Origin: an uncultured Chloroflexia bacterium
GTDB lineage: Bacteria > Chloroflexota > Dehalococcoidia > DSTF01 > JALHUB01
Length of the DNA stretch: 64,000 bases
Direction: 5' to 3'
NCBI GenBank assembly: GCA_963726245.1
Contig: CAVSBT010000044.1
Location: 1-64,000 of the forward strand
Positions 2,429 through 22,554 of this stretch are shown here, in pieces. A program made the position numbers and the translations under genes. The notes under the pieces were generated by a model, which was given only the letters and a program-made list of their open reading frames with translations, had not been told where the DNA came from and did no database searches. Each line of letters begins with the position of its first letter. The first letter of the stretch is position 1.

Positions 2429-2473
2429 TCACCACTGCACGAACATCGGCATGGCGCTTCGACGGTGATAAAC
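2429..2473. mobile_element. left att junction of dnaN-integrated element (displaced original dnaN 3' end plus attP arm)
   Basis: Reverse complement of 2429-2452 = ATG CCG ATG TTC GTG CAG TGG TGA (MPMFVQW*), the same peptide as the dnaN end at 22493-22516. GGTGATAAAC (2464-2473) is the inverted repeat of GTTTATCACC (22488-22497). Confidence 0.9.
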
Positions 2474-2555
2474 CTGGTGTGCCAGGGGTCCCGCTCCGTG
2501 CCACTGTTGCTCTTCGATGAACGTGGACGAGAGAGAAGCCGAAACTGAGGGCCGC

Positions 2556-2600
2556 AGCCCCTGGCGGGACTCGAACCGCCGATCTGCGGTTTGCGAATCC
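2556..2600 (-). pseudogene. degenerate 3' half of a tRNA (possibly Thr); likely an old att remnant
   Basis: Reverse complement GGATTCGCAAACCGCAGATCGGCGGTTCGAGTCCCGCCAGGGGCT: anticodon-like loop, T-loop GGTTCGAGTCC, acceptor 3' strand; no 5' half. Confidence 0.6.
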
Positions 2601-2719
2601 TCAACCTGCCTTCGGGACGGCCAACGAAGAATGTACGAATCAGACGGACAAAGTCACCTAGCTAGGCCTGCTGATCCAGTGTTCACACTGCACGCCATTG
2701 GATGCCCCTTCGCCCTCTG

Positions 2720-3157
2720 CTAATCCCTGTTTCGCCCAGATGTAGAGTCAAGTGGCGGCCGATCCAGCAGAAGAAACCGGTAGTCGTTCTGAAGCACGCT
2801 CTCTAGCTTCAACGCCTCGGCTTCATCTGTGGTCTCGACATAGTCGAAGTAGAGTCTAGAGATTGGGACCACACGCTCGAAACGCCACTTTGCGAACTCC
2901 ACACCAGCCTTATGCCGTGAGCGTCGTCCGCGTGCTGCGCGGCGGAAATCGTTGAGTCGCCGCTCGAGGTCCACCGACTTCCCAATGTGCAGTATCCCAA
3001 GGGGATCGACGCCGCCAAGCCGGCAGATGGGCATGGGCAGACCTTCTTCGCCGAAAGCACGCACCCGGTAGACGCCGGGCTTTCGGCCCACAAATGGTCC
3101 CCTGGGCGTCCCAAACACGGGATAGGTTCGAGACCAGCTCAGGCCTTCGTCCTTCAT
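2720..3157 (-). CDS. GIY-YIG-like nuclease
   Basis: KPGVYRV...ILHIGKSVDLERRL motif, later LESVL. Confidence 0.65.
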   Translation of the reverse strand: MKDEGLSWSRTYPVFGTPRGPFVGRKPGVYRVRAFGEEGLPMPICRLGGVDPLGILHIGKSVDLERRLNDFRRAARGRRSRHKAGVEFAKWRFERVVPISRLYFDYVETTDEAEALKLESVLQNDYRFLLLDRPPLDSTSGRNRD

Positions 3158-3238
3158 CTAGTCATCATGAGTAAGGCTACTCCAAGCTGACAGACAGGGG
3201 GGATGTGTCTCGGGAGACCTTCAGCCCCTGGGTACGCC

Positions 3239-6200
3239 TCACTCCTCCTCAAACCCGGCGCTGTCGAACTTGAGGGTGCGGGCGTTCTCAGTCACGGTTC
3301 TCACGACATCGTCCGGCACGCCCTCGTCAACCCGAGCGCGGATATCAAGGGTGACTTCGACATCAGAACCGACCAGCCCGTCCAGGTGAGCCACCACCTC
3401 CTCGCCGATTCGGCCGGCACCGGAGCTCAGCTTCAGCGGATCCAGGTGAACGGTACCATAGAAGCGCTTGGGCCTCGAGGGAGCCTTGGGTTCACCGGGT
3501 TCCTCGGGCGGGCGTTTTGGCTCTCCCGCCTTGTCGGGGGGCTTCTCCACTTTGGCTACCTGCTCGGCGGCCACCTCCGGTCTCACCACTACGCTCGTGT
3601 CGTCGAAGTACACGCTCGGCGCGGGCTCACCAAATGATAGGCCCTCGTACCTGCCATCGGGCGCGACGCTGGTTGCGTATCCAAAGAAGTCCTTGGTTCG
3701 CACTCCAGCCTTGATGGTCTCCAGGAGAACCCCATGGTCACGAAGGCGGGGGAGGTAGCAGTAGGTGGCGAAGTACTCCCAGAGCTGCTTAACCCCAACG
3801 TGGGGCTGGCCCTCCTTCCACAGGTACTTGTCGAGCTCGCGGCGCAGGTGGGTGGGCGACCAGCTGGTGATCAGGTGCTCGTCGGCCTGGAGGCGGTGGC
3901 TTGCCCTTTGCGCGATGGAGCCAATCGACGCCAGGCCCGTGTCCAAGGGCAGAGCCTCCCAATGAAGAGGGTTGGTCCCTTCTTGCGTGGGGACCAGGGC
4001 CCACTTGTAGGCGCCGTCAACCTGGGCGGCTACTGTCCTGTCGGCCGCGTCTTCAGAGTCCTTGGCTTGCTTCTCTTGGGGCTTGTCCAGGTTCAGGACC
4101 GCAGCATCGGCGACGATGGACTTCCAAGCCAAGTAGCGCCGGACCTCGGCGAGCAGGTTGGTGACGGCGTCGTCATCGGCGGCGGCGAAGACGAGCATGT
4201 TCCTGTACCTTCGTGGCACGGTGCCCCGCGCGTCGAGTATGTCCTGCGCCGCTTTGACGGCGTCGCTGGCCTCGTCGTTGGTGCCGCGCTTGTGGGCGTT
4301 CCGGGGCGAGAGGATCACAAGCCGCGCTTCCGGCTCGTCCGGAACGTCGGCGCCGCTGGGAGGGCAGACGTGGGCGCCCGCGAACTCGCCGCGCTCGCGC
4401 TTCTGGGCAAGGCGCCGCTCCACCTCGGCATACACCTCATCGTCGCTGATCTTCGAAGAGCGGTCGCGGACGGTAAAGACCAGGTTGGGCGGCACATCGA
4501 GCCAGAAGCGGCCCTGTCCGGTGGTGTACAGGTGACTCAGCCGCTGCTGAAGCCGTCCCAGCGCGTCAGCATAGGTGGAGATAGACTCTCCTGGCTGGAC
4601 CACTCCCAGCTTGATGCGAACGTCCTCGATTCCCTTGGTCGTCTTGGCGGGCACGCTGCCCAAAAAGACGGTGCGCGTCACCCGTTGGGCCGCCTGCACC
4701 CGCCCGAAGCGCTCGTTCTCCTGGTCAACCCGCACGGGCTCCGAATCCTCTCCGTCCACGTCAGTGTCGATCACCGAGTTCCACTGCTCACCTAGATAGC
4801 GCGTGAGCTCGTCACGCACAGGCGAGGCATAGATGGGAACCGACCCAGGCATGATCAGGGGCGCCTCGTCCCCCTTACTCCACAGCTCATGGATGACAGC
4901 CGCCATGAGCCGGAGAACTCCCCTCGTGCGCTGGAACCGCTCCAGAGTGCTCCAGTCCTCGTAGAGGCGGTCGAAGACCTCGGGATGGATGGGGTAGCTG
5001 GCCTTCATCCGCTCCACATACCGCGGCTCACGAGCCTCGGTGGGGAAGTCGTTCGGGTTCAGGCGGCAGAGGCGCCCGAACTCTTCACACGTCTCGTCGC
5101 GCGCGGCCTCATCGCGCAGATCCTGGAAGAGGCGCCGACGCACGACTTCGAAGGCCTCCAGGGCCCCCACCGGCTGCCAGGGACGGCTGAGCCGACCAAT
5201 AATGTGCTCCACCTGCTCGGCTATCCTGGCGCCGCTCTCGTCTCCATACTCCATGCGAGACTCAGGGATCGCGACCACGAGCAGGGCCGTCGGGACCTGC
5301 TTGACGGCCTCGGTGAGGTTCTGGAGGAATGTGATGTTCTTGTTGTAGTCCCCGGCCGGCAGGTTTGATACGCCCTTGATGTTGCGGAGGAAGGCGACCA
5401 GCTCATCGATGAGAATGACGCAGGGCCCGACCTGCTTGAACAGGCGTGCCAGGTCGCCGCTGCCCGGGGCGGTGCCTTTGGCGTCGTCCTCCTGCACGAT
5501 GCGGAAGGCATCAAAGGGCTTGGGCTCGCCGAGCTGACAGGCCATCTCGCCCCAGAGCGTCCTGACCTCTATCCCCAGTCCGGCCAGCTCACGCATGGGT
5601 TTGGCTGGGCTCATGGCCGTGCCCACCAGGGCGGCGACGCGAGCAGCGGGCATCGATTTCAGCCGAGCGTCGTCCAGCAGCCGACTAATGTCAGGCATGT
5701 CCGACAAGCTGTCGCCAGCTTGAACGAGGTGGTAGAGGGCGAGGAGTGTGTGGGTCTTGCCGCCGCCGAACGCAGTCTTGAGGTCGATGACGGGCTCGCC
5801 GCCCTTGGCGTCCAGCCGCTCCAGGGCGTTGCACAAAAGGTGCGCCATGTCAGGTGTGACGTAAGTGCGGCGGAAGAACTCCCTGGAGTCCTGGTACTCG
5901 GGCTCCGCCGTACCCGCCACCACCTGGGCCAGGTCGGCGGCGAACTCGGCCTGGACGTAGCGACCGCTCTGCACGTCCGGGTGCGGAGCGATCACGTCCC
6001 GCCAGGGGGCAAGGCCCCTCGGCGAGCGCCCTGGCGGGACAGCCTGCCGCTCCTTCGGCCGGGTAACAGGCCTCGGCTCCCGCCCCTCGTCGATAGCGCG
6101 CCAGATCTCTTGGATTTGTGCCGCGGCCTCCCCATCGAAGGACTGGACCACCAGTCGGCAGGTGTCCACGAAGCGGCCAGCTGGCTGGCGCTCGACATCC

Positions 6201-6574
6201 CCGCTGGCCCAGTGAGCGAGGTCATTGCGGGCGTTGGTGACCTCCCCAATCCAGCCGTCGAGCACGGCCTTGTCCCCCAGGGCGGCCTTGAACACGCGGC
6301 TCCAGTTGCCCTCGATGATGGTGCGGAAGTGGGCGATGTCCAGCATGTCGGCCATCTCCCGGACGTTGGTGGGGACAGCGCTCTTCTTCGTCTGGCGCTG
6401 GTTGAAGAGCTCGTCCAGCCGGATGAGCTCCTCCCCCTTGAAATGTTTGGCTACCCCCTGGGGCCACCAGAGCGCCTCGCCGTACGCCTCCTCGAGCTTT
6501 GTCTTGACGAACTTCCGCATCGCCTCCCGGTAGATGCGCAGGGCGTCCATCATGAGGGCATAGTTGCTGGCCAT
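3239..6574 (-). CDS. DUF499 AAA+ ATPase with N-terminal Swt1-like HEPN domain
   Basis: ARNDLAH (Rx4H) N-terminus; PWRDVIAPHPDV..AEFAADL; Walker A FGGGKTH; Walker B ILIDE; YPIHPE; FQRTRGVLRL. Confidence 0.92.
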   Translation of the reverse strand: MASNYALMMDALRIYREAMRKFVKTKLEEAYGEALWWPQGVAKHFKGEELIRLDELFNQRQTKKSAVPTNVREMADMLDIAHFRTIIEGNWSRVFKAALGDKAVLDGWIGEVTNARNDLAHWASGDVERQPAGRFVDTCRLVVQSFDGEAAAQIQEIWRAIDEGREPRPVTRPKERQAVPPGRSPRGLAPWRDVIAPHPDVQSGRYVQAEFAADLAQVVAGTAEPEYQDSREFFRRTYVTPDMAHLLCNALERLDAKGGEPVIDLKTAFGGGKTHTLLALYHLVQAGDSLSDMPDISRLLDDARLKSMPAARVAALVGTAMSPAKPMRELAGLGIEVRTLWGEMACQLGEPKPFDAFRIVQEDDAKGTAPGSGDLARLFKQVGPCVILIDELVAFLRNIKGVSNLPAGDYNKNITFLQNLTEAVKQVPTALLVVAIPESRMEYGDESGARIAEQVEHIIGRLSRPWQPVGALEAFEVVRRRLFQDLRDEAARDETCEEFGRLCRLNPNDFPTEAREPRYVERMKASYPIHPEVFDRLYEDWSTLERFQRTRGVLRLMAAVIHELWSKGDEAPLIMPGSVPIYASPVRDELTRYLGEQWNSVIDTDVDGEDSEPVRVDQENERFGRVQAAQRVTRTVFLGSVPAKTTKGIEDVRIKLGVVQPGESISTYADALGRLQQRLSHLYTTGQGRFWLDVPPNLVFTVRDRSSKISDDEVYAEVERRLAQKRERGEFAGAHVCPPSGADVPDEPEARLVILSPRNAHKRGTNDEASDAVKAAQDILDARGTVPRRYRNMLVFAAADDDAVTNLLAEVRRYLAWKSIVADAAVLNLDKPQEKQAKDSEDAADRTVAAQVDGAYKWALVPTQEGTNPLHWEALPLDTGLASIGSIAQRASHRLQADEHLITSWSPTHLRRELDKYLWKEGQPHVGVKQLWEYFATYCYLPRLRDHGVLLETIKAGVRTKDFFGYATSVAPDGRYEGLSFGEPAPSVYFDDTSVVVRPEVAAEQVAKVEKPPDKAGEPKRPPEEPGEPKAPSRPKRFYGTVHLDPLKLSSGAGRIGEEVVAHLDGLVGSDVEVTLDIRARVDEGVPDDVVRTVTENARTLKFDSAGFEEE

Positions 6575-6595
6575 GGCATGTCTCTCCAGTTGAGG

Positions 6596-9463
6596 TTACG
6601 CGAGGGGGGCCTGGGTCTCCTGCGCCAGCCGCGCCGCCTGCTTTACGATCTCCGGCCAGCTAGCGACGAGGGCATTGTACCCCAGCGCGGGCTCAGCCCA
6701 GCCCTTACGGTCGCAGATGTCATAGAGGCGGTAGGCCAGGTCCCGCGCCTGGTCCGCCAGGCCGCCGAGCCGACGGGCCAGCCGGGCGGCACCCTGCTCA
6801 CCGCTCTGGTCCAGGGCGGCGATGAGGTAGTGGCAGGCCTCCCACACCGTCGGGCGGCGGTCCGTTACCGGATCGTAGGCCTCCACAGTCTCTTCATAGT
6901 AGGCTAAGGGCTTGAGCTTCATTTTGCCGCCCTTGGCCTCGAGGATGCCATCTCGAGCCATAGCGTCAACGCCGATGCCCTTCGCGCGGGCGAGCACGTC
7001 CGCCTCCCCGTAGGGGCCCTCGCTGAAGCCGTGCTGCTCGACCCATCGGGCGCAGAACTGGGTGTCCGGGTCCAGGTCCCCTTCCTGCTCCGTGAGGTAG
7101 TCCTCGATGGCGCGATTGATGAGCTGGAGGGCGGCGCGAACGGACATGGCCTCGCCACTGGCTTCCAGCACCTTGCTGTAGCTGGAGAAGACGGCCATGC
7201 CGGGCCCGATGGCGGCCTGAGCCAGGTCCACGGGGGCGATATGGCCACCCATGAGGTGCCGGAGCGCCTTGGGCAGCTCCTCCCGCAGCCCTTGCACGAA
7301 CTCTTTCCGCGTGGCAATGGGAGCGTCCTCCCGCCGCGGCCGGCATGCCAGGACGACGGCTGACGCCAGGGCGTTGGTTGCGCGCGCGACGTTCCTAGTA
7401 CCCATCTCGGTTCGCACGGGCCAGGTGCCCGTGACCCGAAATCCAGCTCCTAGCAGGCCGCGCAGCATCGTCTCCCAGGCGCTAGAGGTGGCCAGGACAC
7501 CACCGTCGCCGCCGTCCTCCTCCTCGCGCTGCTTGAAGGCGTAAATGACGGAGACCGGGTACTCGCGATGGGCCCGCTCGCGGAGCAGTGTGAAGGCCTT
7601 GTGGAGCCCTTCCTCGAAGTGGCGCTCCGCCGCCTTCTTGTCGCCGCCGAACCGGTAGGGGGTGGCCACCAGCTCCGGCCCCTTGGGCGTGAGGACCGTG
7701 GCGAAGAGGTCGGGGTAGAGCCGGCCCAGCGTGCAGCGGAGCCAGACGTAGAAGAAGTCGGACAGATCAGCATAGCCAATGTTGTCATAGTATGGAGGGT
7801 CCGTGGCCACGAGGCAGCCAGGAACATCGTGCATGTGCGACGCGGCATCGAATTGGCCGATGATCGCCTGGAGGCCGTCTGGTGGCAGGTACTCAAGTGT
7901 AGCCGCTAGTGTGTTACAGACTGTTTCTATGCTACCGACTGACTCGCTGAATGGATTCACTTCAGCATAGTCCCACGTCATTGGGAGAGCTTGCCTGGCG
8001 AATGTAACCCGGACAGTTGCCACCCTCGCCGATCTCCCGCTTGCGGTGCGGTTCGAAGTCGGGCAGACGTCCCAGGTAGCGATGGTTGAACCTTTGTCGG
8101 CTAGCTTGCTAAGGGTGAAGGCCAGGTATGTAGCGACGGCGTCTGCGTAGGCCGTGGCGCCGGTGCCGCCCTCGGCGATGCCTACACCATCGTCGGGAAA
8201 ACCAGCCTGGCAGGCGTGCTCCAGGGCCAGGGCCCGCGCCTCGCCGACAAGGTCGCTGAACTTGGTGAGCACCACTAGCTGCCGGGGGGTGAAGAGGTCC
8301 GCGAAGGTGGTGAGGCCGTAGTTAGGAGTCTTGAAGTCCCGCGGATTATGAGGGAGCTGGACTTCGTCCAGGAACGATGGCGTGCTCTGGACCCATTCCT
8401 GGTCAACACGGCCGAAGGAACGGTACCCTCGTGCCCGTTCTCCTTCGGTAACGACGGCCATCGGCCCTACGCCCAGACCGTGGCGTCTGCCCCAAGATCG
8501 CACGTGGTCGAAAGCAACCGGACTTCCGCACACTACACACCTAGCGCCCTTGCGATTGACCGTCCCCTCAATACTTGGTTTGCCGCCCGTTCGTACTTCG
8601 AATCGCACCGTCTTTGCTTCCCGGTCCACGACCGGGTCCACCCAGGCCTCTTTGCCCTTCATTCTCGAGAGCCAGAAGGAGCGCACCAGGGGCATCTGGG
8701 CGCCGCAGGCCGGGTTGGGGCACTTCACGGTTCTCGCCCACAGCCAGGCGATGACGGTCTCGCCGTTGGGCCCCTTCGGGTACAGGTGGCCTATCCGCTC
8801 CCAGGCGCGGTCGCGCATCCACTTGCCGTACCAGCGTACGTCGGCGGCCAGGCCGGCGGCGCCCTTCCAGGCCGTGCCCTGCCCCATCTGCTTGCGGGCG
8901 TCTGGGTTCACCGGCGGCCGCCCCGCGAACTTAGGCGGGATCTCTACCAGGGCCTTGGTGATGAGGACGGCCACGGGGTTCAGCTCGCTGGCGTAGACAT
9001 CCAGCCCCAGGCGCTGACCCTCGAGAGGGATGGAGCCGCCTCCGCAGAAGGGGTCGAGCAGCGGCGGCGGATTGCCGTCGGTGGCGGCCCGGATCAGCTC
9101 CCGGGCGGTGCCGATCACGGTCTCGTTGGTCGTGTTCTCCCACTTCACCAGCTTGCCGATGAACTCGAATAGCCGGCCCCGGCGCTGCTCGCCCGTGGAC
9201 AGGGCATCCCAGTCGATAGGCAGCGGGTCAGGCGCCGGCAGCCGGTCGATGGCCTCCAGCAGCTCCTTTGGGCAGCCCTCGCTCTCGGGGTCGTCCACCA
9301 GTGAGGCGAAGATGACGGCTCGACAGGTGGCCAGGGGCCGGCGGGCCCACCACAGGTGCATGGTGGACGGGTGCCCATGGCGTATCGACTTCTCGCGGGC
9401 GCTCTCGGCGTTGATGGCGTCCAGCGGCAGGGCAACCTCGATGAGCTTCTTGCGAGTGGTCAT
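6596..9463 (-). CDS. DUF1156 DNA amino-methyltransferase
   Basis: KKLIEVALPL, LWWARRPL, motif I DPFCGGG, motif IV DPPYY; ATG at 9463 overlaps the upstream stop. Confidence 0.92.
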   Translation of the reverse strand: MTTRKKLIEVALPLDAINAESAREKSIRHGHPSTMHLWWARRPLATCRAVIFASLVDDPESEGCPKELLEAIDRLPAPDPLPIDWDALSTGEQRRGRLFEFIGKLVKWENTTNETVIGTARELIRAATDGNPPPLLDPFCGGGSIPLEGQRLGLDVYASELNPVAVLITKALVEIPPKFAGRPPVNPDARKQMGQGTAWKGAAGLAADVRWYGKWMRDRAWERIGHLYPKGPNGETVIAWLWARTVKCPNPACGAQMPLVRSFWLSRMKGKEAWVDPVVDREAKTVRFEVRTGGKPSIEGTVNRKGARCVVCGSPVAFDHVRSWGRRHGLGVGPMAVVTEGERARGYRSFGRVDQEWVQSTPSFLDEVQLPHNPRDFKTPNYGLTTFADLFTPRQLVVLTKFSDLVGEARALALEHACQAGFPDDGVGIAEGGTGATAYADAVATYLAFTLSKLADKGSTIATWDVCPTSNRTASGRSARVATVRVTFARQALPMTWDYAEVNPFSESVGSIETVCNTLAATLEYLPPDGLQAIIGQFDAASHMHDVPGCLVATDPPYYDNIGYADLSDFFYVWLRCTLGRLYPDLFATVLTPKGPELVATPYRFGGDKKAAERHFEEGLHKAFTLLRERAHREYPVSVIYAFKQREEEDGGDGGVLATSSAWETMLRGLLGAGFRVTGTWPVRTEMGTRNVARATNALASAVVLACRPRREDAPIATRKEFVQGLREELPKALRHLMGGHIAPVDLAQAAIGPGMAVFSSYSKVLEASGEAMSVRAALQLINRAIEDYLTEQEGDLDPDTQFCARWVEQHGFSEGPYGEADVLARAKGIGVDAMARDGILEAKGGKMKLKPLAYYEETVEAYDPVTDRRPTVWEACHYLIAALDQSGEQGAARLARRLGGLADQARDLAYRLYDICDRKGWAEPALGYNALVASWPEIVKQAARLAQETQAPLA

Positions 9464-10015
9464 GGCAGATCCTGCACAGTCTCCCTCAGTCGCACGAGGC
9501 AACGCTGCAGACTATCCGACGATTGAGCGGCTATCTCCGGCCGCCACAGCTCGACAAATTCGATCATGCGCGAAGTGTAGGCCGGCCCGACTGCCCGGCC
9601 GCTTTCAGGGCGTGGCACCATGTCGTCACGGATTCTCTCTCCTTCGGGAATGTCTGGCAAGCTCGACCAGCCGTTGTTTCGGGTTGTCCAGGGTCTCAGG
9701 ACTTTGGGGAACCCGGGAGCGCGCGATGCTAAGGAAGCGGGCAATCTGCTCGCGGTCCGCCAGCAACCAGGCCTCGACCTCTCGTACCGCCACTCGGAAG
9801 CACATGTAGGGCGCGGGGTCGGGCATCCATGCCGCCCTCATTAGAGAGGCACATGCAGCATCATTGTTCAGGTCTACCAGGATTACCCACGGCCTGAGCC
9901 GCGCTGCCTGGTTGTAGCTCCCTAACCGCCTGTGAAGATCTCCCTTCCCGGTCTTGCCGTAAACCGACCCAGAGGTGGCCCCAACGCGTCGCACGAGGCC
10001 CGCCGCCACGCCCAA
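9460..10015 (-). pseudogene. DUF4276/Toprim-like protein, N-terminus apparently lost, frameshift near 9635
   Basis: VILVDL..AC..FRVAVREVEAWLLAD, then DDMVPRPESGRAVGPAY...SDSLQRC in another frame; the usual N-terminal VEG motif is absent. Confidence 0.6.
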
Positions 10016-10049
10016 GAGGAGTGCCAGCTTGCGCCGCTGAGCCTGGTCC

Positions 10050-10393
10050 TAGACCTGCCCCGCCGGAAGGCCCGCCGTCCTCGGACGGGTTCGCCCCGGG
10101 GGGAGGAGATTGCCGAGGCAGTGGGGACACGTCTCCGAGAAGGCATCCAACTGCGGTGGCGGGAGCTGCGATCTGTAGAACTCGTCCTGGAGGAGGTCGC
10201 AGGAGAGTTCGACGGGGAGGCCCCCACCCGGCCATGGGAACGGGAGGCCCTCGACGACGGCAAGACCAGGCTCGAGGAACTGCACCGCGCGGCCCAAGCC
10301 TACGTTGGGCCGTTCAAGCTGCCGGGGCCCGACGAGGAAGAGATGGAGCAAGTCAGGGAGGTCATACGGCGGGAGGGAGAGCCTTGGAGGTGA
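10050..10393 (+). pseudogene. C-terminal remnant of an unknown helical protein
   Basis: Protein-like 3' part of ORF 9932..10393 (EEIAEAVG...EVIRREGEPWR*), no convincing start; abuts the truncated gene on the opposite strand. Confidence 0.4.
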
Positions 10394-10411
10394 GCTCAGT
10401 CGGACTCCCAA

Positions 10412-10437
10412 AGGCAGCACACTATGAGCCCATGGTG
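10412..10437. repeat. direct repeat copy 1 (AGGCAGCACACTATGAGC-NN-ATGGTG)
   Basis: 24/26 identical to 12584-12609. Confidence 0.8.
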
Positions 10438-10573
10438 TCGGCGGCCAGGAGACCAGATGACGCTTCTGGCGACTTGCTTCTCTACTATGATGGCCGGCTC
10501 TGTCCCCTGATGGGCATCTACTCGCTGCTGCCCCACGTTTTGGGGACGTGAGCGGCCCGGTCTAATGCGAGCG

Positions 10574-10601
10574 TTGACAAGGCTGGCATTGCGCGTATGA
10601 T
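10574..10601 (+). promoter_or_regulatory. sigma70-like promoter
   Basis: TTGACA-16 bp-TATGAT upstream of the surface protein gene. Confidence 0.6.
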
Positions 10602-10815
10602 GGGCCTGTCCCGGCTGGGATCCTTGAAGCGAGAATGACCAGGCTAGGCGGGGGCCATGGTCACGGGGAGCGTCCACTTCGTTTGCGTGAACAGCCACTG
10701 CGCCGCTGACGCGGCGGCTGAGGTATAGCTACGGCGTGACCGGCCCATGGCGGGCCGGCCTTGCTTTGTGCCGGCCGCGGGCGGCGGCAGCGCGCTTCCG
10801 GCGGGAGGTACTACG

Positions 10816-12498: not shown

Positions 12499-12525
12499 GA
12501 CACCGATAGCTTGCACTCTCGCCAA

Positions 12526-12551: not shown

Positions 12552-12583
12552 CGCTTTCGCTTGCGAATGGAGGGAGGGGCAAG

Positions 12584-12609
12584 AGGCAGCACACTATGAG
12601 CGGATGGTG
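12584..12609. repeat. direct repeat copy 2
   Basis: Matches 10412-10437. Confidence 0.8.
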
Positions 12610-12855: not shown

Positions 12856-12884
12856 TTGACAAGTTGCCCATGTGGGAGTAGTTT
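12856..12884 (+). promoter_or_regulatory. sigma70-like promoter of ABC operon
   Basis: TTGACA-17 bp-TAGTTT. Confidence 0.6.
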
Positions 12885-12890
12885 ACGCTC

Positions 12891-13125
12891 GCATAAGGAA
12901 CCGCCGGCGTTGGTGGCACCGGCGGCCCCGGTTAGCGAGCCCTGGCGCGGCCAGGGTCGGTCTATCCAGTTGGAGGCGATAGGCCCCGACCGCGCAAGGT
13001 CTGGGGCTTGTGTATCTGGCTTCCCCGCCGGGGTGCGACTACAGCGGGCGTCCCTTTGCTCCCACCAGGTGGCCGGTGGAGCCCCGCGAAAGGCGACGCC
13101 CCGCCTATCAGTAGCCGGTCAGTTC
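12891..13125 (+). ncRNA. candidate structured 5' leader RNA (family unassigned)
   Basis: Consecutive hairpins, two with GCAA/GAAA loops, between promoter and ATG 13162. Confidence 0.35.
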
Positions 13126-13161
13126 GTCCAGTAGATTCAGAGTCTGCAGACAACTGCCGCA

Positions 13162-13929
13162 ATGACTTTGACGAAGAACGCCCTGGTACCGAGGTTGCCG
13201 CCGACCCTCGACGGCGCGGCGGCGGCGACCGACGCGCTGTGCAAGCGGTTCGGACGGATCGATGCGCTCACCGACGTGTGCCTGGCGGCCCCCTGCGGCA
13301 TCACCTTCGGCCTTCTCGGCCCCAACGGCAGCGGCAAGACAACGCTGCTCCGCCTGCTGGCCGGCGTGCTGAAGCCCACCTCCGGCGAGGTCCGCATTCT
13401 CGGCGGGCGGCCCCAGGGAGACCTGCTCAACGAGGTGGGCTATATGCCTCAGGGCCTCGGCCTGGATGACAGGCTGACCGTCTGGGAGAACATGCGCTGG
13501 TTCGCCGGGGTGCAGGGCGTGCGTTCGAAGGTGCAGATGGAGGAGGCGCTCGACCTCGTGCACATACGGGACAGGATGCACAGCCGGGTGCGCGACCTCA
13601 GCACCGGCACGGCGCGACGAGTTTCCCTTGCCTGCGCGCTGGCTCACCGGCCGCGACTGCTCCTTCTGGACGAGCCAACCGTGGGCGTTGACCCCTACCT
13701 GCGACGCCAGTTCTGGGAGTACTTCCACCGCCTCAACACCGAAGGCGTCACCATTATGCTGACGACGCATATCCTCGACGAGGCGGAACGCTGCCATCGA
13801 GTGGGGATACTCCGCTCTGGTCGTCTCCTCGCGCAAGGCAGCCCGCGGGAGGCCTCGACAGCACTGGGCGCTTCGACGCTCGAAGGCGCCTTCCTGAAGC
13901 TTGCGGAGGAGTCTGTTGGCACCGCGTAG
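13162..13929 (+). CDS. ABC-2 exporter ATP-binding subunit
   Basis: GPNGSGKTT, LSTG signature, LLLLDEPT, TTH switch. Confidence 0.93.
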   Translation: MTLTKNALVPRLPPTLDGAAAATDALCKRFGRIDALTDVCLAAPCGITFGLLGPNGSGKTTLLRLLAGVLKPTSGEVRILGGRPQGDLLNEVGYMPQGLGLDDRLTVWENMRWFAGVQGVRSKVQMEEALDLVHIRDRMHSRVRDLSTGTARRVSLACALAHRPRLLLLDEPTVGVDPYLRRQFWEYFHRLNTEGVTIMLTTHILDEAERCHRVGILRSGRLLAQGSPREASTALGASTLEGAFLKLAEESVGTA

Positions 13930-15055
13930 GGTCTGGCGTATCGCCCAGAGCGTCGCAACCGGGCATTATAGGGACATCCGTGCGCTGTGGGCCATCCTTC
14001 TGGTCCCCGTCGGCACCATGCTGCTCCTGGGCTTGGTGATGAGGCACACCAGCCATCCGCTCACCATCGCGCTTGCCGTTACGGACGACAAGTGGAGCAC
14101 TACCACCACCGCCTCACAGATCGAGGAGGCGCTGCACACGGACGACATCTTGACGTTCCGGACCGACAGCCGGTACGCGGCTGAACAGGCGCTCCGGGAT
14201 GGAAAGGCGGACGGCTTCGTGGTCATCGACAGCGCCCTCGCCGCAGACGTGCTGGGAGGCAAGACGCGGGAGGTGACCGTCGGCGTCGCAGGCGAGAGCC
14301 TGTTCCTCAGCCAGCGGACGCTCGCGGGCGTTGGGCATGCGCTCGTCACCGCTTCCCTGAGGGTGTTCCAGGACGCGAGCGGGGTTGAGCGCAACGCCGA
14401 CGAAAAGGTCGAGTTCAACACGACCTACCTCCACGGGGGCAAGGATTACGACGCCTGGGACCACCTGGCCCCCGCCCTTCTCGCCTTTCTCCCCTTCGTC
14501 TCCATGCTCACCGTCACCGTAGTGACATTCACGGCCGGCCGGGCCCAGCGCACCACGGAGCGGCTCATGGCGACGGCGCTGCGCCGGGGAGAGCTCATGC
14601 TGGGCAAGATGCTGGGCTATGGCACGATAACTCCCATCCAGGTAGGTGCGCTGCTGCTGATAATCACGCTGGTCCTGCGGGTCCACTTCGCTGGGAACCT
14701 GGGCGCCATATTCATCCTCACCGCCGTCGCTTCACTGGGAGCGCTGAACCTGGGCATGTTCCTGTCGTCCTTCGCCCGCTCCGAGGCGCAAGCGATGCAG
14801 ACGCTGCCTCTCGTCGTGGTGCCTCAGGCTGTCCTCAGCGGCGTCCTCTTCCCCCTGGACACGTTGCCCGACGCCCTGCAGGCCATCGCCCGCTTTCTCC
14901 CCCTCACTTACGCCGTCAGCGCCCTGCGCGACGTGATGATCAGGGGTGACGGCCTGCTGGACCCCGGAGTTGCGGTCAACCTGGCGGTCCTGCTGGCCTT
15001 TGCAGTCTTCTTCCTGTTCCTGGCGGCGCGAACGCTGGAGCAGGAAGCCAGTTGA
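13901..15055 (+). CDS. ABC-2 exporter permease
   Basis: N-terminal TM, extracellular domain, five C-terminal TMs, LSGVLFPLDTLP..PLTY. Confidence 0.9.
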   Translation: MRRSLLAPRRVWRIAQSVATGHYRDIRALWAILLVPVGTMLLLGLVMRHTSHPLTIALAVTDDKWSTTTTASQIEEALHTDDILTFRTDSRYAAEQALRDGKADGFVVIDSALAADVLGGKTREVTVGVAGESLFLSQRTLAGVGHALVTASLRVFQDASGVERNADEKVEFNTTYLHGGKDYDAWDHLAPALLAFLPFVSMLTVTVVTFTAGRAQRTTERLMATALRRGELMLGKMLGYGTITPIQVGALLLIITLVLRVHFAGNLGAIFILTAVASLGALNLGMFLSSFARSEAQAMQTLPLVVVPQAVLSGVLFPLDTLPDALQAIARFLPLTYAVSALRDVMIRGDGLLDPGVAVNLAVLLAFAVFFLFLAARTLEQEAS

Positions 15056-15102
15056 AGCGAAAGCCGCCCGCGGATAGGGCGTGTCAAGAAAGGGGACCGG
15101 CA

Positions 15103-18100
15103 ATGTCTGGCAAAGCAATCGCGACCTTAGCTTTCCACCTGCTGAAACGAGGGGCGGGAACCGGCCGCCCGGGGGGCAGAAGCCGGCTCTTCCGGCTCTG
15201 GCCCGTCGGGGGTGGCGTGCTGCTGGCCCTGGCCGCGGCCGTGGCCGCGCTGGCCCTGTTCAATGGGGACGGCCCGCGGCCCGTCCTGAGCGCCGCGGGC
15301 AACAACGCCATGGCCGTGGTGGGGCCGTCCGGAGCCCAGCCCATCGGCGGCCAGTTCGACGCCAGCGTGAGCATAACGGCGGCGCCGACCCCGTACTGGA
15401 TGTATTGGGCCAATGTCAAGTTCGACGACACTATCCTGACGTGGGTCCCCGTCTTCGATTCCGACGCTAACACGACCGCGGACTCCACCGTGTACAGTAG
15501 CCTTGGGGGCGCGACCCTACACCTGTATCCCAACCCCCAGTTCGACTACAACGCCAACGGGTGGAAGGACTCGACGTTCGCTGCTTCCCTCCGCCCATCC
15601 GGGACCACCACAGCCACGGGCCTGGCGGTGACCATGCGGTTCCAGTGCCTCCAGGCGGGCACCAGCCCCCTACACCTGGTGACGCCGCAGGAGGATACGC
15701 TAAACAGCACGACCACTTTGGCCGACGGCGGCTCCCGTATCGTCACGGACCTGACGGACGGGTCAGTCGAGTGCGGGATCTTGGAGGTCAACTCCACCGG
15801 CGACTTGCCCGACTTCTCGCTGGGCGACCCCATTTGCGATGATGGCACGGGCCACTGCACCCTGCGCGCCGCCATAATGCAGGCCAACGCCGACGCGGGG
15901 CCGGACACCATCACCTTCAACATTCCCGCCGGGGCTCAAGGCGATCCCGGGTGCAATCATGACACCGGCGTCTGCACGATCACTCCCGGAACGACCCTGC
16001 CCTGGATCGCCTACCCCGTGACCATCGACGGCACCACCCAGCCCGGCTACGCCGGCAGCCCCATCATCGACCTGAGCGGCGCTGCCGGGGTGTACTATGG
16101 CCTCGACATCCAGGCCCCCGACAGCACAGTGCGCGGGCTGGTGATCAATGGTTTTGCGGGGGGGCCCGGCATCGCACTCGCCGGGGCCGGGGCTACCGGC
16201 GACCACATCGAGGGCAACTACATCGGCACGGACGTCAGCGGGATGGAGCCGCAACCCAACCAGTATGGGGTTCTTTTTTACGGTGGCAACGACGACACCG
16301 TCGGCGGCACGGGCACCGGCGAGCGGAACGTCATCTCGGGGAACACCATCGGCGTCGCGGTGGGGGGCTCTGGCAATTCCATACTGGGGAACTACATCGG
16401 CACCAACGCGGCCGGCGACGGAGCGCTGGCCAACGTCTCGGGGGTTTGGTTGCCCGGGCCCGGCAACACGGTCGGCGGGACGGCGGCGGGCGCGGAGAAC
16501 ACCATCGCCTACAACACCGGCGACGGCGTTAAGGTTGATGGTGCCACCGCCACCGGTAACACCATACGGCGCAACCACATCTACGCCAACGGCGGCCTCG
16601 GCATCGACAACACTAACGGCGGCAACCTGGTGCTGCCGCCCCCCGCAATAGACAGCGCGCCGGCGGTGCAGGGCGGGCCCATAACCGGCACCGCCTGCGA
16701 GGGCTGCTACGTAGAGGTCTTCTCAGACGATGGAAACCAGGGCAAACGGATCATCGGCCATACCATCGCGGGCACCGGGGGGGCCTTCGCGGACGACGGG
16801 CAGGGAAACGGCTACGGCTGGAGCCTGGCGCAGCGCGCCGTCGGGCCCTACGTCACGGCCACCGCGACGGACCCCGGCGGCAACACCTCGAAGTTCTCCG
16901 ACGCCTCGCCGGTGGAGGGCGCCGGGCTGCTCGGCTACTTCCCCCAAATCGACCTGCGCCTCTCGTCGGAAGAGCCCTCAGCGCCCGCCGGCGTCAATCT
17001 GGACATCCAAGTGCCGCCCTCCACCCTCAACACCGAGTGGCTGCGCCTGCTGATGAGCGGCTCCGACTGGTTCCCGGGCAATCCTCGCCGCCCCGCTACT
17101 GAGATACCCGTGGGCGGCTTGACCGTCGAGATCGATGCCGGAGGCGGGCTGATTCTTACGGCGGCCGGCGCCGGCGGGCCGACCGTTCCCATCCCTCTCT
17201 ACGCCGTCGCGGATCCCGACTTCGCCGCGACCCTCGACTACCTGCCGGCCGACATCAACCAGGACGACGTCATCGGCGCCTTCAAGGCGAACGGGGCCGA
17301 CGCCCACATCTGGTTCCAGGACCTAGACATCACCAGTTCCTACGAGTTCGACGGCACGGGCTACGCCTTCATCGTCGACCGGGACGACGGCAAGCCGGAG
17401 ATGGTCTTCGGCACGGCCGGCTACGCTTCGATTGTCAAATCCGCGAGGGTCACGCGGGTCCATCTCAACCTGGACGGCCAGGTGGGCAGCTTCGTCGTGA
17501 GACAGAACAGCGGCACCGACGGGTACTTCCCCGTCGTGGCCAGGGCGGACACCGCCGACAGCCAGTATTCGGGCATCAATCAGCTCGCCCTCGGCATGGC
17601 GTGTTTCTACATAGGGACGGGCACGCCTCCCACCGACAGCGACGGCGACTGCCTGGTGGCCGGGGCCCTCGGGGAGGACGACGGCAACCAGGACCAGGAT
17701 AATGACGGCCTGCCCGACGGGTTCGACCTCCTTTGCGGCAGCCAGAACACCATCACCAGCCCCAACTACGACGGGGACAGCTACGGCGACTGGGAAGAGT
17801 GCGCTCGCGGCACCGACCCCGACCCCTGGGACACCGACGTGGATGGCTTCAGCGACGCGGTGGACAACTGCCCCTTGGCGAAGAACCCGTCGCAGGCCGA
17901 CTTTGACAGGGACGGGCAAGGCGACGCCTGCGACCTGGACGACGACGGCGACTACCTCACCGACAGGCAGGAGCAGTCCGCCGTCGTCACTCTGGTGGGC
18001 GACGACTCAAGCACTCTCGATATGAAAGAGAACACTTTCCGCTGTGACTTCGGCGGCGGGCTGTCAACGCAACTGAACCCGAGGGAGCGTGACACGGACC

Positions 18101-19048
18101 ACGACGGCTTCCTCGACGGCGCCGAGTGCGCCCTCGGCTCCGACCCGACCAACAATCCCGGCGGAGTCGGATACGTATGCCCGCCGGGGGTACCGTACAG
18201 CACGCCGGAGATAGTCGGCAACCTCAAAGACGACGACTGCGACGGGCTGGTGGACGAGAAGCCCGTGAAGCTGCTGGTCGGGTTCCAGGAGGGCGGCACC
18301 AGCGCGGATGACCCGGACAGCGACGGCCTCATGAACGCCGGCTCCGACACCGGCATCTCCTGGGAGACCGTTGCCGGCACCTGCAGGCAGGTGCGGGGCG
18401 ACGCGTCGCATCCCCCGGTAGACCTCGCCACCTGCACCGACCCCGACTACTGGGCTGTCCCCGCGCCCCCCGAGGCAGCGTACGGTGGCAACGGGGCCCA
18501 TACTGCCCAGGACGACGCCGGGCCCCCGCAAATTGCGGACGTTGACGGCGACGGCCTCACCGACGGGGACGAGTTCATGCGCTACGGCACGTCGCTCGTC
18601 AACCTGGACACCGACAACGACGGCTGCGCGGACAGCGAGGAGGTGGCGGGCGCGCCTGCTTCCAAGCCCGGCTCCACCGGCGCCTATCGACCCCCTGGTC
18701 TGGTACGACTTCTTCGACGTGCCGGTGCCCGCCAACGCGGACATGACTCGCAACGGCCCTCGCAACAAGGAGGTTGACATCGCCGACGTGCTAGCCGTCC
18801 TCTACTACTCCGGCGCCAACGCGGGCGGGCCGCCCAACGGTAGCGGCGTGGCCTACGACACCATCAAGGGCTCGTGTGACTGGAACGCGGACACGGTGCC
18901 GGACAAGGAGGGCCTGTGCTACGACCGAACGCCCGGCCCCCTGCCGAACCCACCCAATGACGCGGGGCCGCCCAACGGTGCCATCGACATCAGCGACGTG
19001 CTGGTGGTCCTGGCGCAGAGCGGCCTGAGTTGCGCCGGGCCGCCGTAG
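15103..19048 (+). CDS. large surface protein: cohesin-like, CSLREA-like/beta-helix, thrombospondin-3-like Ca repeats, C-terminal dockerin-like module (frameshift near 18690)
   Basis: TM/signal segment; VNSTGD..CTLRAAI; GNYIGT repeats; DNCP..NP.Q.D.D.DG; C-terminal module in ORF 18485..19048. Confidence 0.8.
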
Positions 19049-19160
19049 GCAGCACTGGCCTACGCTCTAAGCACTAAGGGGCGGTCGCGAAGGCCGCCCC
19101 CAGTGTTCGCGAGCTGGTGCGCAGGAACCCCGCGGACAGCAGACTGCCTCGAAAATGCGG

Positions 19161-20388
19161 TCATACGGCGGGCCGCAGCGAGACGCTGTATCCGAGCGCT
19201 TCCAATCGGTGGGTGCGGCGGCTACAAACTCAATCACGGTGGAGTTGATCGAAGTAGTTGTCTCCCAGGTCAACGTAGATCTGTCCGCGAGCCAGGATAT
19301 GGTAGACGATTGTGAGAATGCTGTGGGCCACGGCCACGGCAGCCCGGTTCGCCCCGCGACGCGCCGCAATACGGTGGTACTGGGCGCCCAGATACGTGCG
19401 ACTGCGGGCAGCAGCGCGAGCAGCCTCCACGAGGGCACTACGTAGCCAAGGACTGCCTTTGCGGGTGCGTCCGCTGTGAGATTTCCCGGCGCTTTGGTGC
19501 TGGCCAGGACAGAGGCCGGTCCACGAGGCCAGGTGGCGAGCGGAAGGGAAGCGTCCCATCTCGGCTCCTAGTTCACTGAGCAGCGTCTCAGCGATGCGGC
19601 GACCGACGCCGGGGATGGTCGTGAGCCGCTCCAGGTCCGGTTGAAAAGGACGGAGCCGTTCCTCTATCTCGCCGCTGACTTCCTCGATCAGGGCGCCCAG
19701 GTTGTCGATGTGCCGCAGGTGGGCCGCCAGCAGGAACCGCTGATGGGCCTCCAGCCGGCCGTGGAGCGCCTCCTCCAAGGCCGCTTTCTTGTTCCGGAGC
19801 TTGCCGAGGGCCAGGCCTGCCATCATCTGGGCCTCTTCTTCTCCTGCCACTAGCGCTGCCAGCATTGCGCGCCCTGAGACTCCAACCACGTTGCTGGCCA
19901 CAGAGGCCAGCTTGATGTTGGCGCCTTCCAGTACCTTCTGGATTCGGTTCACCTCTGATGCGCGTTCTCGGACTAGGGTAGTACGGTAGCGGGAGAGTTC
20001 TCGCAACTCGCGCTCCGGGCGGGAGGGGATGAAGCTGGGGCGGAGCAGGCTATGGCGCAGCAGGTCGGCAATCCACTCGGCGTCTCGCACGTCCGTCTTG
20101 CGCCCAGGCACGGCTTTCAGGTGCTGGGCATTCACCACCAACAGCTCGAAGGTTCCCTCCAAGATGTTGTACACGGGCTTCCAATACGACCCGGTGCTCT
20201 CCATGGCCACGTGGGTGCATCCCGCTGCACTCAACCAGTCCGTGAGCGCGAGCAGCTCTCGCGTCGTGGCCCCGAACGTTCGGACTTCGCGTATGGCCCC
20301 CCCCACGCAGCCCCGGTGTCAGCAGACATGCCACCACCGTCTTCTTGTGCACGTCCAGCCCACAGCAGCGCTCGTGCACGACATCCAT
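19161..20388 (-). pseudogene. IS110 transposase (DEDD + Tnp), frameshift near 20305 and in-frame TGA at 19230
   Basis: [30 protein letters not shown]; frame continues past TGA as VCSRRTHRLEALGYSVSLRPAV*. Confidence 0.9.
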
Positions 20389-20608
20389 AGCCTTCACCTC
20401 TCTCTGTAGTGTGACGGCCGGGAGGGTGCCCTTGTCTTCAGATACTGCCTCGCGTGCTCCCGCTAGGGGCAACAGACGGCCATGCCCGCGAGCACCCAGG
20501 TCCAAACTAAGAGGCGGGCTTCTGGCACCATAGTGTGCGCGACCTCCGCTCTGCCGGCGCGTCCGTCACCATTTTCATCCGCGGCCGTGTCGCAAAGCGA
20601 CATCAGTA
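20389..20608 (-). ncRNA. putative IS110 bridge RNA region
   Basis: Contains exact 9-nt copies of both junctions (20505-20513 = 20608-20616; 20444-20452 = 19143-19151). Confidence 0.7.
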
Positions 20609-20768
20609 ACTAAGAGTACATCGTGCCTCAAGGCTGGTCCATATGCCCTACAGAGTCAACCGCTTTCAGATACGCATGGAGTTTTGGCACCCCACAGCTT
20701 GGACCGACCACTAGTATAGCATTAAGTATTGACAAGTTGTGCCATATTGACGTACGCTACCGCTAGAG

Positions 20769-20981
20769 ATGAGCGACGAATGGGTAACAGTCGCGGAGGT
20801 GGCTGACCTCCTGCGACTTCATCCGGAAACGATCCGGCGCCTTCTCCGCAGGGGGGAGTTGGTCGGGCACGATTTCGGGGGGCGAGGCGGGTACCGGATA
20901 AGCAGGCAAGATCTGGACCGATATCTGCAGAGCCTGGGAAAGCAGCCTTCTCCGAGGAGGCGCAAGCGAGGATCGCAATGA
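20769..20981 (+). CDS. excisionase-like HTH (HTH_17) protein, candidate directionality factor
   Basis: VTVAEVADLLRLHPETIRRLLRRGEL..YRI; ATGA overlap with the recombinase. Confidence 0.85.
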   Translation: MSDEWVTVAEVADLLRLHPETIRRLLRRGELVGHDFGGRGGYRISRQDLDRYLQSLGKQPSPRRRKRGSQ

Positions 20982-22554
20982 AAGCAGTCATCTACTCACG
21001 AGTCTCCACTGATGCCCAGGAGCGCGATGGGTCCTCCCTGGATACCCAGGAGCGAGCCTGCCTCGAGCACGCCGAGGCCAACGGCTGGCCGATTGCAGAG
21101 TGCGTCCGTGATATGGCCAGCGGCTTCACCCTCGACAGGCCGGGCATCGAGCGGGTGCGCCAGCTGCTTCGGCAGGGCACGGTGGACGTTGTCGTCGCCT
21201 ACGCGGTCGACCGGCTCTCCCGGAACCAGAACCACATCGGCGTCCTCTTCGACGAGGTCGAGCAGGCCGGGGCTCGGCTGGACTTCGTGACGGAGCGCTT
21301 TGAGGACACCGCCATCGGGCGGTTCATCCTGGCGGCCCGCGCCTTCATTGCCGAGGTTGAGCGGGAGAAGATCGCTGAGCGCACCACGCGGGGCAAGATC
21401 GAGCGGGCGCGGTCCGGCCGGCTGCCCCAGGCCACCGGGAAGGGGATTACGGCTACCGCTACAATCGCGAGACAGGCAAGCGGGAGATAGACTCCTTCCA
21501 GGCGACCGTCGTGAGGCGCATCTTTCAGCGCTACACCGAGACCCGCAGCTTCTCGGCCGTCTCCAACGAACTGAGCGCCGCTGGCGTCCCCTCCTTCTCT
21601 GGCGGCCGGTGGTACCCGCTCACGGTCCGGTCGGTACTGACCAACGAGACGTACACCGGGCGGACCGTGTTTCGCCGGACGAAGAGGGTTAGGTCCCGGA
21701 ACGGAACAACGGGGAGGCGCCGTAGCCAGGTGGTCGAGCGGCCCGTGGAGGAGTGGATCGAGGTTGTGGGTGCTACCCCTCGCATTGTCGATCAGGCATT
21801 GTGGGGTCGTGTGCAGGAGATTATTCGCGACCCCGAGCGCATCAGACGACGACCGGCTGGGCGATTCTATGCCTTGAGCACACGGGCCAGATGCGGGCTA
21901 TGCGGCTCGGCCATGGTGGGCCAAACGCTGACGGTCAAGGGGCAGTCGTACCGCTACTACCGCTGCCGCCACGCATACGACCGGAACACCGGCCGGGACT
22001 GCTCGGCGCGGTACGTGCCCGCAGACGCGCTTGAGGCCGCCGTCTGGCGCGAGGTGAAGCAGGTGCTGGCAGACCCCGCCGTCGTGCTTCGCGAGCTGCA
22101 GAGAGACGCAGAGCTCAACACGGACACTGAAGAGGTGTCTCGTCTTGTGCAGGAGATCGAATCCCTTAGGGACCGCGAGAAGCGCCTGGTGCGACTCTAC
22201 ACCTATGGGGAGGTCGACGAAGAGGTCATCCGCGAGGAAGGTGCAAACCTCCGGCGTCAGCTAGGTGTGCTAGAGGAACGACGAAGGTCTCTGGACCAGC
22301 GGCCGGTCGACTACGGCGAGCGCCTCAACCCTGAGGTACTGGAACGTGTGTGCGCCGCCGTCGCCGAGTGGCTCGACCGCGCCGGCGAGGAGGACCGGAC
22401 CCTGGTCTTGGAAGCGCTGCAGCTATCGGTGGGGGCGACCAAGGATACTGCGAGGGTGACCGGGGTGCTGCCGGTCGAGCCGCCTCAGTTTATCACCATT
22501 GAACGAACATGGGCATCACCACGTGGACGTAGTTCTCGACGCCCACGGGCTTGA
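20978..22554 (+). CDS. large serine recombinase (frameshift near 21445)
   Basis: YSRVST catalytic Ser, DRLSR, recombinase domain, Zn ribbon CGLCG..YYRC..C, coiled coil; reads through att into dnaN antisense. Confidence 0.92.
22488..22516. mobile_element. right att junction (element-supplied dnaN 3' end)
   Basis: GTTTATCACCATTGAACGAACATG-GG-CAT; encodes PMFVQW* with codons CCC/GTT/CAA, versus CCG/GTG/CAG at the left junction. Confidence 0.9.

Follow-up and report, generated by a model that had tools for sequence, protein, structure and literature searches.

The DNA analyzed here, referred to as the window, comprises the first 64 kb (64,000 nucleotides) of contig CAVSBT010000044.1 (C44), from the contig start onward, in a metagenome-assembled genome (MAG) of an uncultured Dehalococcoidia bacterium (2.68 Mb in 46 contigs, 82.8% complete, 6.3% contamination). 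It contains an island of 20.06 kb (2450–22511) at the 3' end of dnaN, the beta clamp gene, and we describe this island, its large serine recombinase (LSR) gene and the attachment (att) site lying inside the LSR reading frame. The dnaN gene (22493–23635, minus strand) encodes 380 aa with all three DNA_pol3_beta Pfam domains. Its last seven codons, MPMFVQW, and the stop are located at 22493–22516 (minus strand), and a second copy of this ending, without a gene in front, was read directly at 2429–2452 (minus strand), as had been stated in a preliminary description of this DNA. The two 24-mers are identical at 21 of 24 bases, with a core-to-core spacing of 20,064 bp. Bases 22493–22511 of dnaN are island DNA and provide the third base of the Pro codon, MFVQW and the stop. 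As the island thereby supplies a synonymous version of the last 19 bases of dnaN, the clamp remains intact, and the original ending is displaced to the far junction (attL in the terms of the preliminary description), where it represents the displaced attB half.

In related genomes dnaN was detected in 37 of 41 cases, and MPMFVQW followed by a stop was the end of the gene in 25 of 30 loci. The 24-mer of the orphan ending occurred letter for letter as the working dnaN end in 4 of these 30 loci, in agreement with the earlier view of the orphan as a former dnaN end. The codons of the orphan had also been called host-like as opposed to those in use. Based on the codon usage of dnaN this held for Gln (the CAA in use is 1 of 15 Gln codons) and Val (GTT, 2 of 36), but not for Pro, as CCC, with 15 of 20, is the commonest Pro codon.

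The far and the near site share only the sequence GGCAT (2448–2452 and 22512–22516), bounded by mismatches at 2447 (C) versus 22511 (G) and at 2453 (G) versus 22517 (C). The crossover therefore took place somewhere within these 5 bp, and the center of symmetry is the GG dinucleotide (2448–2449 at the far junction, where the crossover maps to 2448–2452, and 22512–22513 at the dnaN-proximal junction). Joining the inner flanks around GG gives a quasi-palindrome of 24+2+24 bp, formed by the LSR-proximal arm (22488–22511, plus strand) and the distal arm (2450–2473, plus strand), its inverted repeat. We confirmed the manual count of 18 matches in 24; the outer 10-mer, GGTGATAAAC, is perfect. Searching both strands of the window for 24-mers matching the proximal arm at 16 or more positions returned only the arm itself, its direct counterpart at 2424 (17 matches) and the inverted arm at 2450 (18 matches). 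Among 15 other pairs of LSR and far junction, the arm symmetry ranged from 10 to 18 of 24. With a quasi-palindrome and a non-palindromic central dinucleotide, the inner flanks have the layout of a serine integrase attP, as read from their sequence. The proximal arm also contains the LSR codons FITIERT(W), and its antisense strand is the replacement dnaN ending, which supports the triple role (att arm, recombinase codons, clamp ending) assigned to it before. Compared by eye, the dnaN-restoring and the displaced arm stay in the same register over about 19 bp and diverge past the stop codon; the position of the outer zinc-ribbon motif, expected to lie 4–5 bp closer to the center in attB than in attP, was likewise judged by eye only.

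The recombinase had been presented as a single open reading frame (ORF). We found two ORFs in different frames. LSR part 1 (20978–21490, plus strand, 170 aa) contains the Resolvase catalytic domain (PF00239, E 1.7e-34), and its YSRVST motif aligns with relatives; LSR part 2 (21511–22554, plus strand, 347 aa; frame open from 21376) contains the Recombinase and zinc-ribbon domains (PF07508, PF13408) and a coiled coil, and crosses the core into antisense dnaN. The halves are 86 and 75% identical to an intact protein of 513 aa in the related genome G007 (G, C and L numbers are our labels for genomes, contigs and loci), which carries Resolvase, Recombinase and Zn_ribbon_recom Pfam domains. Compared with it, the window gene lacks the third base of an Ile codon (1-nt deletion at 21447/21448, plus strand), and the part 1 frame is lost after 21447, following GKGI. 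The gene is intact in relatives. By its domains the window recombinase belongs to the LSRs; PDB matches of one family member included SPbeta, A118 and other serine integrases, and the AlphaFold2 (AF2) model of the family member L131 contains long helices at 353–473. The deletion makes the window copy a pseudogene as assembled, so that no switch can operate in it and it does not provide the ready-made set of LSR, attP and attB that had been proposed.

Directly upstream, with its stop codon overlapping the LSR start, lies a gene for a 70-aa HTH_17 protein (20769–20981, plus strand) with an excisionase-type helix-turn-helix (HTH), a candidate directionality factor. The suggested partnership of this protein with the LSR did not extend to the family: tblastn matched it in 5 of 80 LSR loci, and only in one of the 80 (L089 in G007, 79% identical) was it located directly upstream of the LSR gene; by this search it is not a family-wide partner.

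Islands at the dnaN end and the reading frame across the core

The C-terminal part of the LSR was searched in 93 genomes of the order, and 80 loci with LSR homologues from other species were examined. The search gave 13 non-self matches in 11 other genomes. Twelve of the matches lie directly at a dnaN end, which belongs to dnaN itself in ten cases and to an orphan copy in two. Of the 80 loci, 69 abut a dnaN end, 62 in convergent orientation at the LSR 3' end and seven in the same sense; in the remaining 11, several of them cut by contig ends, none was present. In 46 of the 62 convergent loci dnaN itself lies beside the ending. The window thus represents no peculiarity; judged from these sequences, a widespread family of LSR islands lands at the dnaN end.

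Several genomes contain multiple copies of the dnaN ending: 11 in the complete genome G029, seven in G035 and four in G004, while the reversed-pattern control gave 0. Five of the G029 copies are found in the 100 kb that follow dnaN, and a second LSR gene adjoins one of these five. Such series of endings are the sequence signature of tandem island accretion downstream of dnaN. In a genome of the same genus as the window (G001, 89% complete), a different sequence follows dnaN, and no LSR match was found in this genome.

In all 62 convergent loci it is the LSR frame that stays open through the core; it extends at least 161 codons upstream (at least 377 in 60 loci), and in the seven same-sense loci the LSR frame likewise crosses the core. 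All three phases are in use, with 36, 14 and 12 of the 62 loci, so that the antisense sequence of dnaN determines which residues stand at the crossover. In the integrated form of the window the LSR ORF ends at 22552–22554, while the reading on the far side stops at 2518–2520; both stops, and the passage of the LSR frame through the crossover, had been predicted correctly. The integrated-form tail (the last 12 residues; SPRGRSSRRPRA) is incidental, since in 25 of the 36 loci of the same phase (phase 2) the integrated gene stops two codons beyond the core codon. This early stop arises because dnaN has GTC or ATC there, and the window has its extension of 12 residues only because its dnaN has GTG. 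By comparison of these frames, attP lies in the LSR frame about 20–35 codons before the stop, and the C-terminus of the enzyme depends on the state of integration.

The detached C-terminal tail

On the far side of the window island, the detached C-terminal piece spans 2450–2520 (plus strand). The LSR frame from 2452 to 2517 reads WRFDGDKPGVPGVPLRATVALR, with the stop at 2518–2520 and a strand-like stretch, V-P-L-R-A-T-V-A-L, at 2488–2514. For 16 islands the LSR was paired with the next orphan ending, and the circle-form reading was derived by script. In 14 of the 16 pairs a conserved in-frame tail of about 20–35 codons follows the crossover. Twelve pairs (phases 1 and 2) share a [VL]-[PH]-[FL]-x-x-[TS] motif with alternating hydrophobic residues, which lies 11–16 codons past the core in the frame of the LSR itself and is followed by a stop after another 2–16 codons. 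The two phase-0 pairs have a different conserved tail of 19–20 codons, which likewise ends in an alternating hydrophobic run. Overall tail length varied between 19 and 42 codons, and the last residues varied as well. Past the first 24 nt, the differences between related tails fell on codon positions 1, 2 and 3 in 189, 108 and 206 cases, respectively.

The protein database contains close relatives in both forms, of 545–546 aa with the tail and of 515 aa ending at the core. One natural long form sits in a chromosome behind another island, which is what tandem arrays predict. A contig from IMG/VR that lacks dnaN encodes a 31%-identical LSR; it carries a dnaN-like arm, and its tail is contiguous and includes a similar motif. 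Two LSRs that have no dnaN-like arm (L188 and L189) also end in such a motif. The AF2 model of a natural long form (mean predicted local distance difference test score, pLDDT, 81.2) assigns residues 534–542 to a strand, with low confidence. We consider it probable, from the pattern of conservation, that the tail is a selected part of the LSR protein. Being conserved in the LSR frame, it would be a genuine C-terminal element that integration detaches, and this gives the previously suggested idea of a switch its first support, comparative in nature.

Proposed mechanism, alternatives and related systems

The reading that we favor, with fairly good confidence given the sequence comparisons, is that of a dnaN-targeting LSR island that repairs the clamp gene and whose attP splits the LSR gene before a conserved tail, the window copy being probably stranded. 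The LSR would insert the island at a GG/CC core that forms part of the Pro codon seven codons ahead of the dnaN stop. Strand cleavage at GG, rotation of the subunits and rejoining would follow the biochemistry of LSRs in general. On the free circle, or in a position behind a neighboring island, the gene encodes the long form ending in the conserved element, probably a beta-strand. After integration the tail piece lies about 20 kb away at the other end of the island, and the gene gives a short form that ends at or just past the crossover. The tail would be functional in the enzyme and most likely belong to the region of the second DNA-binding domain that in the SPbeta integrase helps to set direction. 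The long form would then favor attP x attB, and the short form together with a directionality factor would act on attL x attR. Excision is a precondition for the spread of an island, so that some activity of the short form on these two sites is to be expected; and as the C-terminus of the SPbeta integrase contacts the directionality factor, a removable C-terminus could bias the direction of the reaction.

A more far-reaching version, to which we give only limited credence, is that the split gene itself constitutes the directionality control, a full LSR being made only from the circle or from a tandem neighbor. The truncated LSR would then join attL and attR, or be unable to re-integrate, and a separate factor would hardly be needed, if at all. 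Owing to the dnaN-restoring arm, attL resembles attB and attR resembles attP over about 19 bp, and a built-in switch could therefore stop the island from cycling. If so, the physical state of the element would set the direction of its enzyme, and the switch would also account for the tandem arrays.

A number of points weigh against the favored reading. By sequence, the crossover is resolved to 5 bp and not to the GG dinucleotide. As the window LSR is broken, its function is not readable from the window alone, and since the DNA to the left of the island is unmatched in the same-genus genome, the true empty site of this lineage was not seen. Neither the circle joint nor the empty-site joint was found in four read runs placed on 3000–22999, a range that includes the dnaN-proximal junction only. 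In a search of read runs, none reached half of the sampled words (at best 0.29), and in the bin 21009–21675 the depth of the four runs was 0–0.35, giving nearly zero coverage of the LSR gene including the frameshift site. The pairing of LSR and orphan ending presumes that no DNA was lost in between, and two of the 16 pairs (G103/L136 and G106/L164) are discordant, one having a flank of another class. As the compared sequences are related, the pairs are not independent, and both the counts and the codon-position sum overstate independence; moreover, the tail motif was defined after the data were seen. Finally, the crossover residues, being dictated by dnaN and dependent on phase, are not selected as protein, and AF2 confidence is low in the tail, with a strand pLDDT of about 50–58, disorder (below 50) at 510–532 and three tail-bearing rows in the alignment.

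The last two points also fit the view that the read-through is incidental: the LSR would be complete before attP, and the stretch past the arm would be kept for a reason at the DNA level, such as an extended att site, a binding site for an accessory protein, or a promoter or terminator at the island end. The use of three phases across the core agrees with this, as does the predominance, among genomes, of short forms that end at the core (the 25 of 36 phase-2 loci). In 5 to 14 of 27 flanks, at most about half, the tail span is also open in other sense or antisense frames, so that an open frame in itself says little about the tail, a further point against the favored reading. In addition, McMurdie et al. 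judged the equivalent overlap in dsiB, in the parts of their report consulted, to be divergent and possibly trivial (PMC3146451). Nevertheless, the motif stands in the LSR frame in 12 of 12 pairs of phases 1 and 2, although the spacing between core and motif varies from 11 to 16 codons, which a DNA site at fixed distance would not permit; codon position 2 varies least; and a similar motif is found at the end of the LSRs that lack a dnaN-like arm. We therefore regard an incidental read-through as unlikely. By analogy with the mycobacteriophage switches cited in the preliminary description, the tail might instead act as a stability tag without a role in catalysis; the long form encoded by the circle would then be short-lived, or the reverse. 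Several tails do end in small hydrophobic residues (the far-side reading of the window ends in TVALR), yet their ends are not conserved in length or last residue, and the conserved part is the internal strand-like motif, which makes this explanation improbable.

Two further alternatives concern the assembly. The frameshift in the window LSR might stem from faulty assembly or sequencing, in which case the island would still be mobile: it consists of a single 1-nt gap between halves that remain 86 and 75% identical to the intact G007 protein, and the source is an incomplete MAG with some contamination. This is conceivable, though we doubt it: the gap lies outside any long homopolymer, and the island also contains an IS110-family transposase gene (19230–20306, minus strand). 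With both the split LSR gene and IS110, the window island is probably immobile, or stranded, as assembled. That the duplicated ending itself arose by chimeric assembly or is repeated by chance seems extremely improbable. The contig derives from a MAG, the far junction is 2.4 kb from the contig start and the left flank differs in GC content, but the same type of junction occurs in many independent assemblies including complete chromosomes, the reversed-pattern controls gave 0, and the match between the arms is unique in the window.

Among the closest known systems are the ssrA islands of Dehalococcoides (McMurdie et al., 2011; PMC3146451; the following is limited to the consulted parts of that report). 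These islands occur in tandem within about 100 kb and encode the serine recombinase DsiB. The dsiB gene is said to "always" overlap the att site at its 3' end, with its stop codon outside the island, the overlapping part being divergent, and the authors already asked whether the enzyme is complete only on the circle or behind a neighboring island. The dnaN islands occur in the same bacterial class and, like the ssrA islands, are LSR-borne, occupy the 3' end of a single-copy essential gene, have a short direct repeat of that end at the far boundary and form tandem arrays; going by the published description, the 3' end of their LSR gene resembles dsiB in overlapping the att site and having its stop outside the island. 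Unlike the ssrA islands, which target a tmRNA gene, they hit a protein-coding gene whose last codons are re-supplied in frame. The ssrA islands further contain a second, small serine recombinase (DsiA) in the same operon and a six-gene module, whereas the window has the HTH_17 gene upstream of the LSR; no Resolvase domain was found in the other island ORFs tested. While the overlap in dsiB was reported as divergent, the dnaN islands show in-frame conservation of the stretch past the arm.

In myxophage Mx8, attP lies in the integrase coding sequence, and integration creates a new 3' end (IntP/IntX) with altered behavior, which the consulted portions of the publications describe as regulation by reversible gene modification (PMC6070905, PMC4383910). 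The Mx8 enzyme is, however, a tyrosine integrase of unrelated fold and mechanism with a target in a tRNA region, while the window enzyme has serine recombinase domains only. For the SPbeta integrase, the C-terminus was found to contact the recombination directionality factor (RDF) and was proposed to be part of a "molecular toggle switch", according to the consulted part of the preprint (bioRxiv 10.1101/2025.01.03.631226). This C-terminus, with its hydrophobic residues, offers a plausible role for a removable C-terminal piece in the dnaN-island LSR; in SPbeta, however, it is always encoded with the gene, as attP lies between sprA and sprB. Thus, an attP inside an integrase gene is not new in kind, dsiB of the ssrA islands and intP of Mx8 being precedents; new, as far as sequence comparison goes, is a conserved in-frame LSR tail beyond the crossover that is detached by integration. 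An extreme C-terminal element of the SPbeta integrase SprA was reportedly described by Abe et al. in 2021. Mycobacteriophage BPs is said to have integration-dependent immunity, in which attP lies inside a phage gene and integration alters the C-terminus of the product; there, unlike in the dnaN islands, the split gene is reportedly the repressor and the integrase a tyrosine enzyme. In SCCmec, two recombinases (CcrAB) act together, unlike in the dnaN islands, and we know of no att site inside a SCCmec recombinase gene. Otherwise SCCmec with CcrAB at the rlmH 3' end, as mentioned in the consulted parts of McMurdie et al. (PMC3146451), resembles the dnaN islands in using serine recombinases, keeping the end of a housekeeping gene intact and accreting in tandem. 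In the literature searched, no report of dnaN as an LSR target was found, though target-gene tables in supplements of LSR-mining studies may list it; a candidate paper names DnaN solely in its role in replication. For an overlap of LSR genes with attP, the literature searched yielded no closer parallel than the ssrA/DsiB, Mx8, SPbeta, BPs and SCCmec systems.

What decides whether an LSR inserts or excises is an active question of structural work, and these enzymes are prized tools for genome engineering. In at least 60 diverged enzymes of the family, the gene itself contains the crossover, ahead of a conserved C-terminal element, and nature thus offers matched long and short forms whose attP and attB can be read from the genomes. 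This makes the proposed C-terminal "toggle" directly testable. The dnaN end, next to the replication origin region, moreover emerges as a major site of island accretion in GC-rich Dehalococcoidia, a counterpart of ssrA in Dehalococcoides. The islands also illustrate that an essential protein-coding gene can serve as a landing pad when the element re-supplies its last codons.

Other dnaN endings, the left flank and the island cargo

Some loci deviate from the common arrangement. In L090, L097, L112, L114, L115, L129, L158 and G003 (L038), the LSR gene is located at the far end of the island, facing a same-sense dnaN ending, an orientation that fits the expectation if the core dinucleotide alone sets orientation. 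Copies of the ending were also observed far from dnaN and on both strands, at 1273431, 1282078, 1286644, 1693443 and 2548829 of G029:C1 and at 368728–390190 of G035:C7. Most of these distant copies are followed by the same sequence of about 45 nt as the orphan copies near dnaN, which suggests rearrangements mediated by the islands or a repeat unit that extends beyond the att site. In G089 (L060, 5020–5043 plus and 10516–10539 minus), an inverted, slightly altered copy of the ending is located at a distance of 5.5 kb from the end of dnaN, next to an LSR fragment that contains in-frame stops, possibly due to an inversion between att sites.

The dnaN endings themselves also varied. In eight loci (L093, L094, L108, L109, L110, L111, L125 and L157), the ending given by the island has no stop directly after the last Trp, so that the clamp would carry additional C-terminal residues. 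The MAG of the window contains a second dnaN-like sequence (G000:C43:58-1199, L082), which is 68% identical, has two in-frame TGA codons and frame changes, ends in the same MPMFVQW 24-mer including the stop, and belongs to a contaminant genome or is a pseudogene. In G027:C27 (L063, 17064–17087 and 18779–18802), the dnaN end is duplicated over about 23 codons, the last 12 being identical, at a distance of 1.7 kb. No LSR match was found in the G027 genome, and the duplication is another kind of insertion at the same spot. Contigs assembled from the reads that stop at 22493 indicate that related strains carry other sequence after dnaN.

To the left of the island the window contains only 2,428 bp, as the contig begins at the window start. 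This flank (1–2428) has a GC content of 0.57, compared with 0.65–0.70 elsewhere, and encodes a ParA-like ATPase (1426–2310, minus strand). Apart from a 38-nt hit, no DNA match was found in the same-genus genome G001 or in four genomes of the family, and the flank may well be a remnant of another, older mobile element at the same hotspot. In the family, the gene after dnaN or after the outermost orphan ending (G001:C179, G002:C43:21701, G016:C42:2450 and G003 L038) begins with MTP(D/E)EA..L(I)(K/E)QGEG..VEFK and may be the native neighbor of dnaN; it is absent from the left flank of the window. Just inside the island, the sequence at 2545–2610 (minus strand) looked by eye like the 3' half of a tRNA. 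This candidate was discarded, as ARAGORN found 0 tRNA or tmRNA genes in the window and Rfam (E up to 1) returned only a chance snoRNA match.

The cargo of the island includes putative defense genes. Following a small ORF with a weak GIY-YIG match below the Pfam cut-off (2720–3157, minus strand), an HmaC-like AAA+ ATPase (DUF499) with an N-terminal HEPN domain (3239–6574, minus strand) and an HmaB-like DNA adenine methylase (DUF1156; 6596–9502, minus strand) were identified by PADLOC, whose HmaB and HmaC models were matched end to end (PDLC00660/00661, 1062 bits; PDLC00662, 1056 bits). The helicase HmaA was matched by 0 of 8 scanned proteins; no large ORF adjoins the HmaB-like gene, and the small ORFs at 9500–10700 were scanned in part. 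The pair is possibly a two-gene variant or a decayed system. Further along the island, on the plus strand, lie genes for a 583-aa protein with a TSP3 repeat (10747–12498), for an ABC transporter (13162–15055) composed of an ATPase (13162–13929) and an ABC-2 permease (13901–15055), and for a 1241-aa beta-helix/TSP3 protein (15052–18777).

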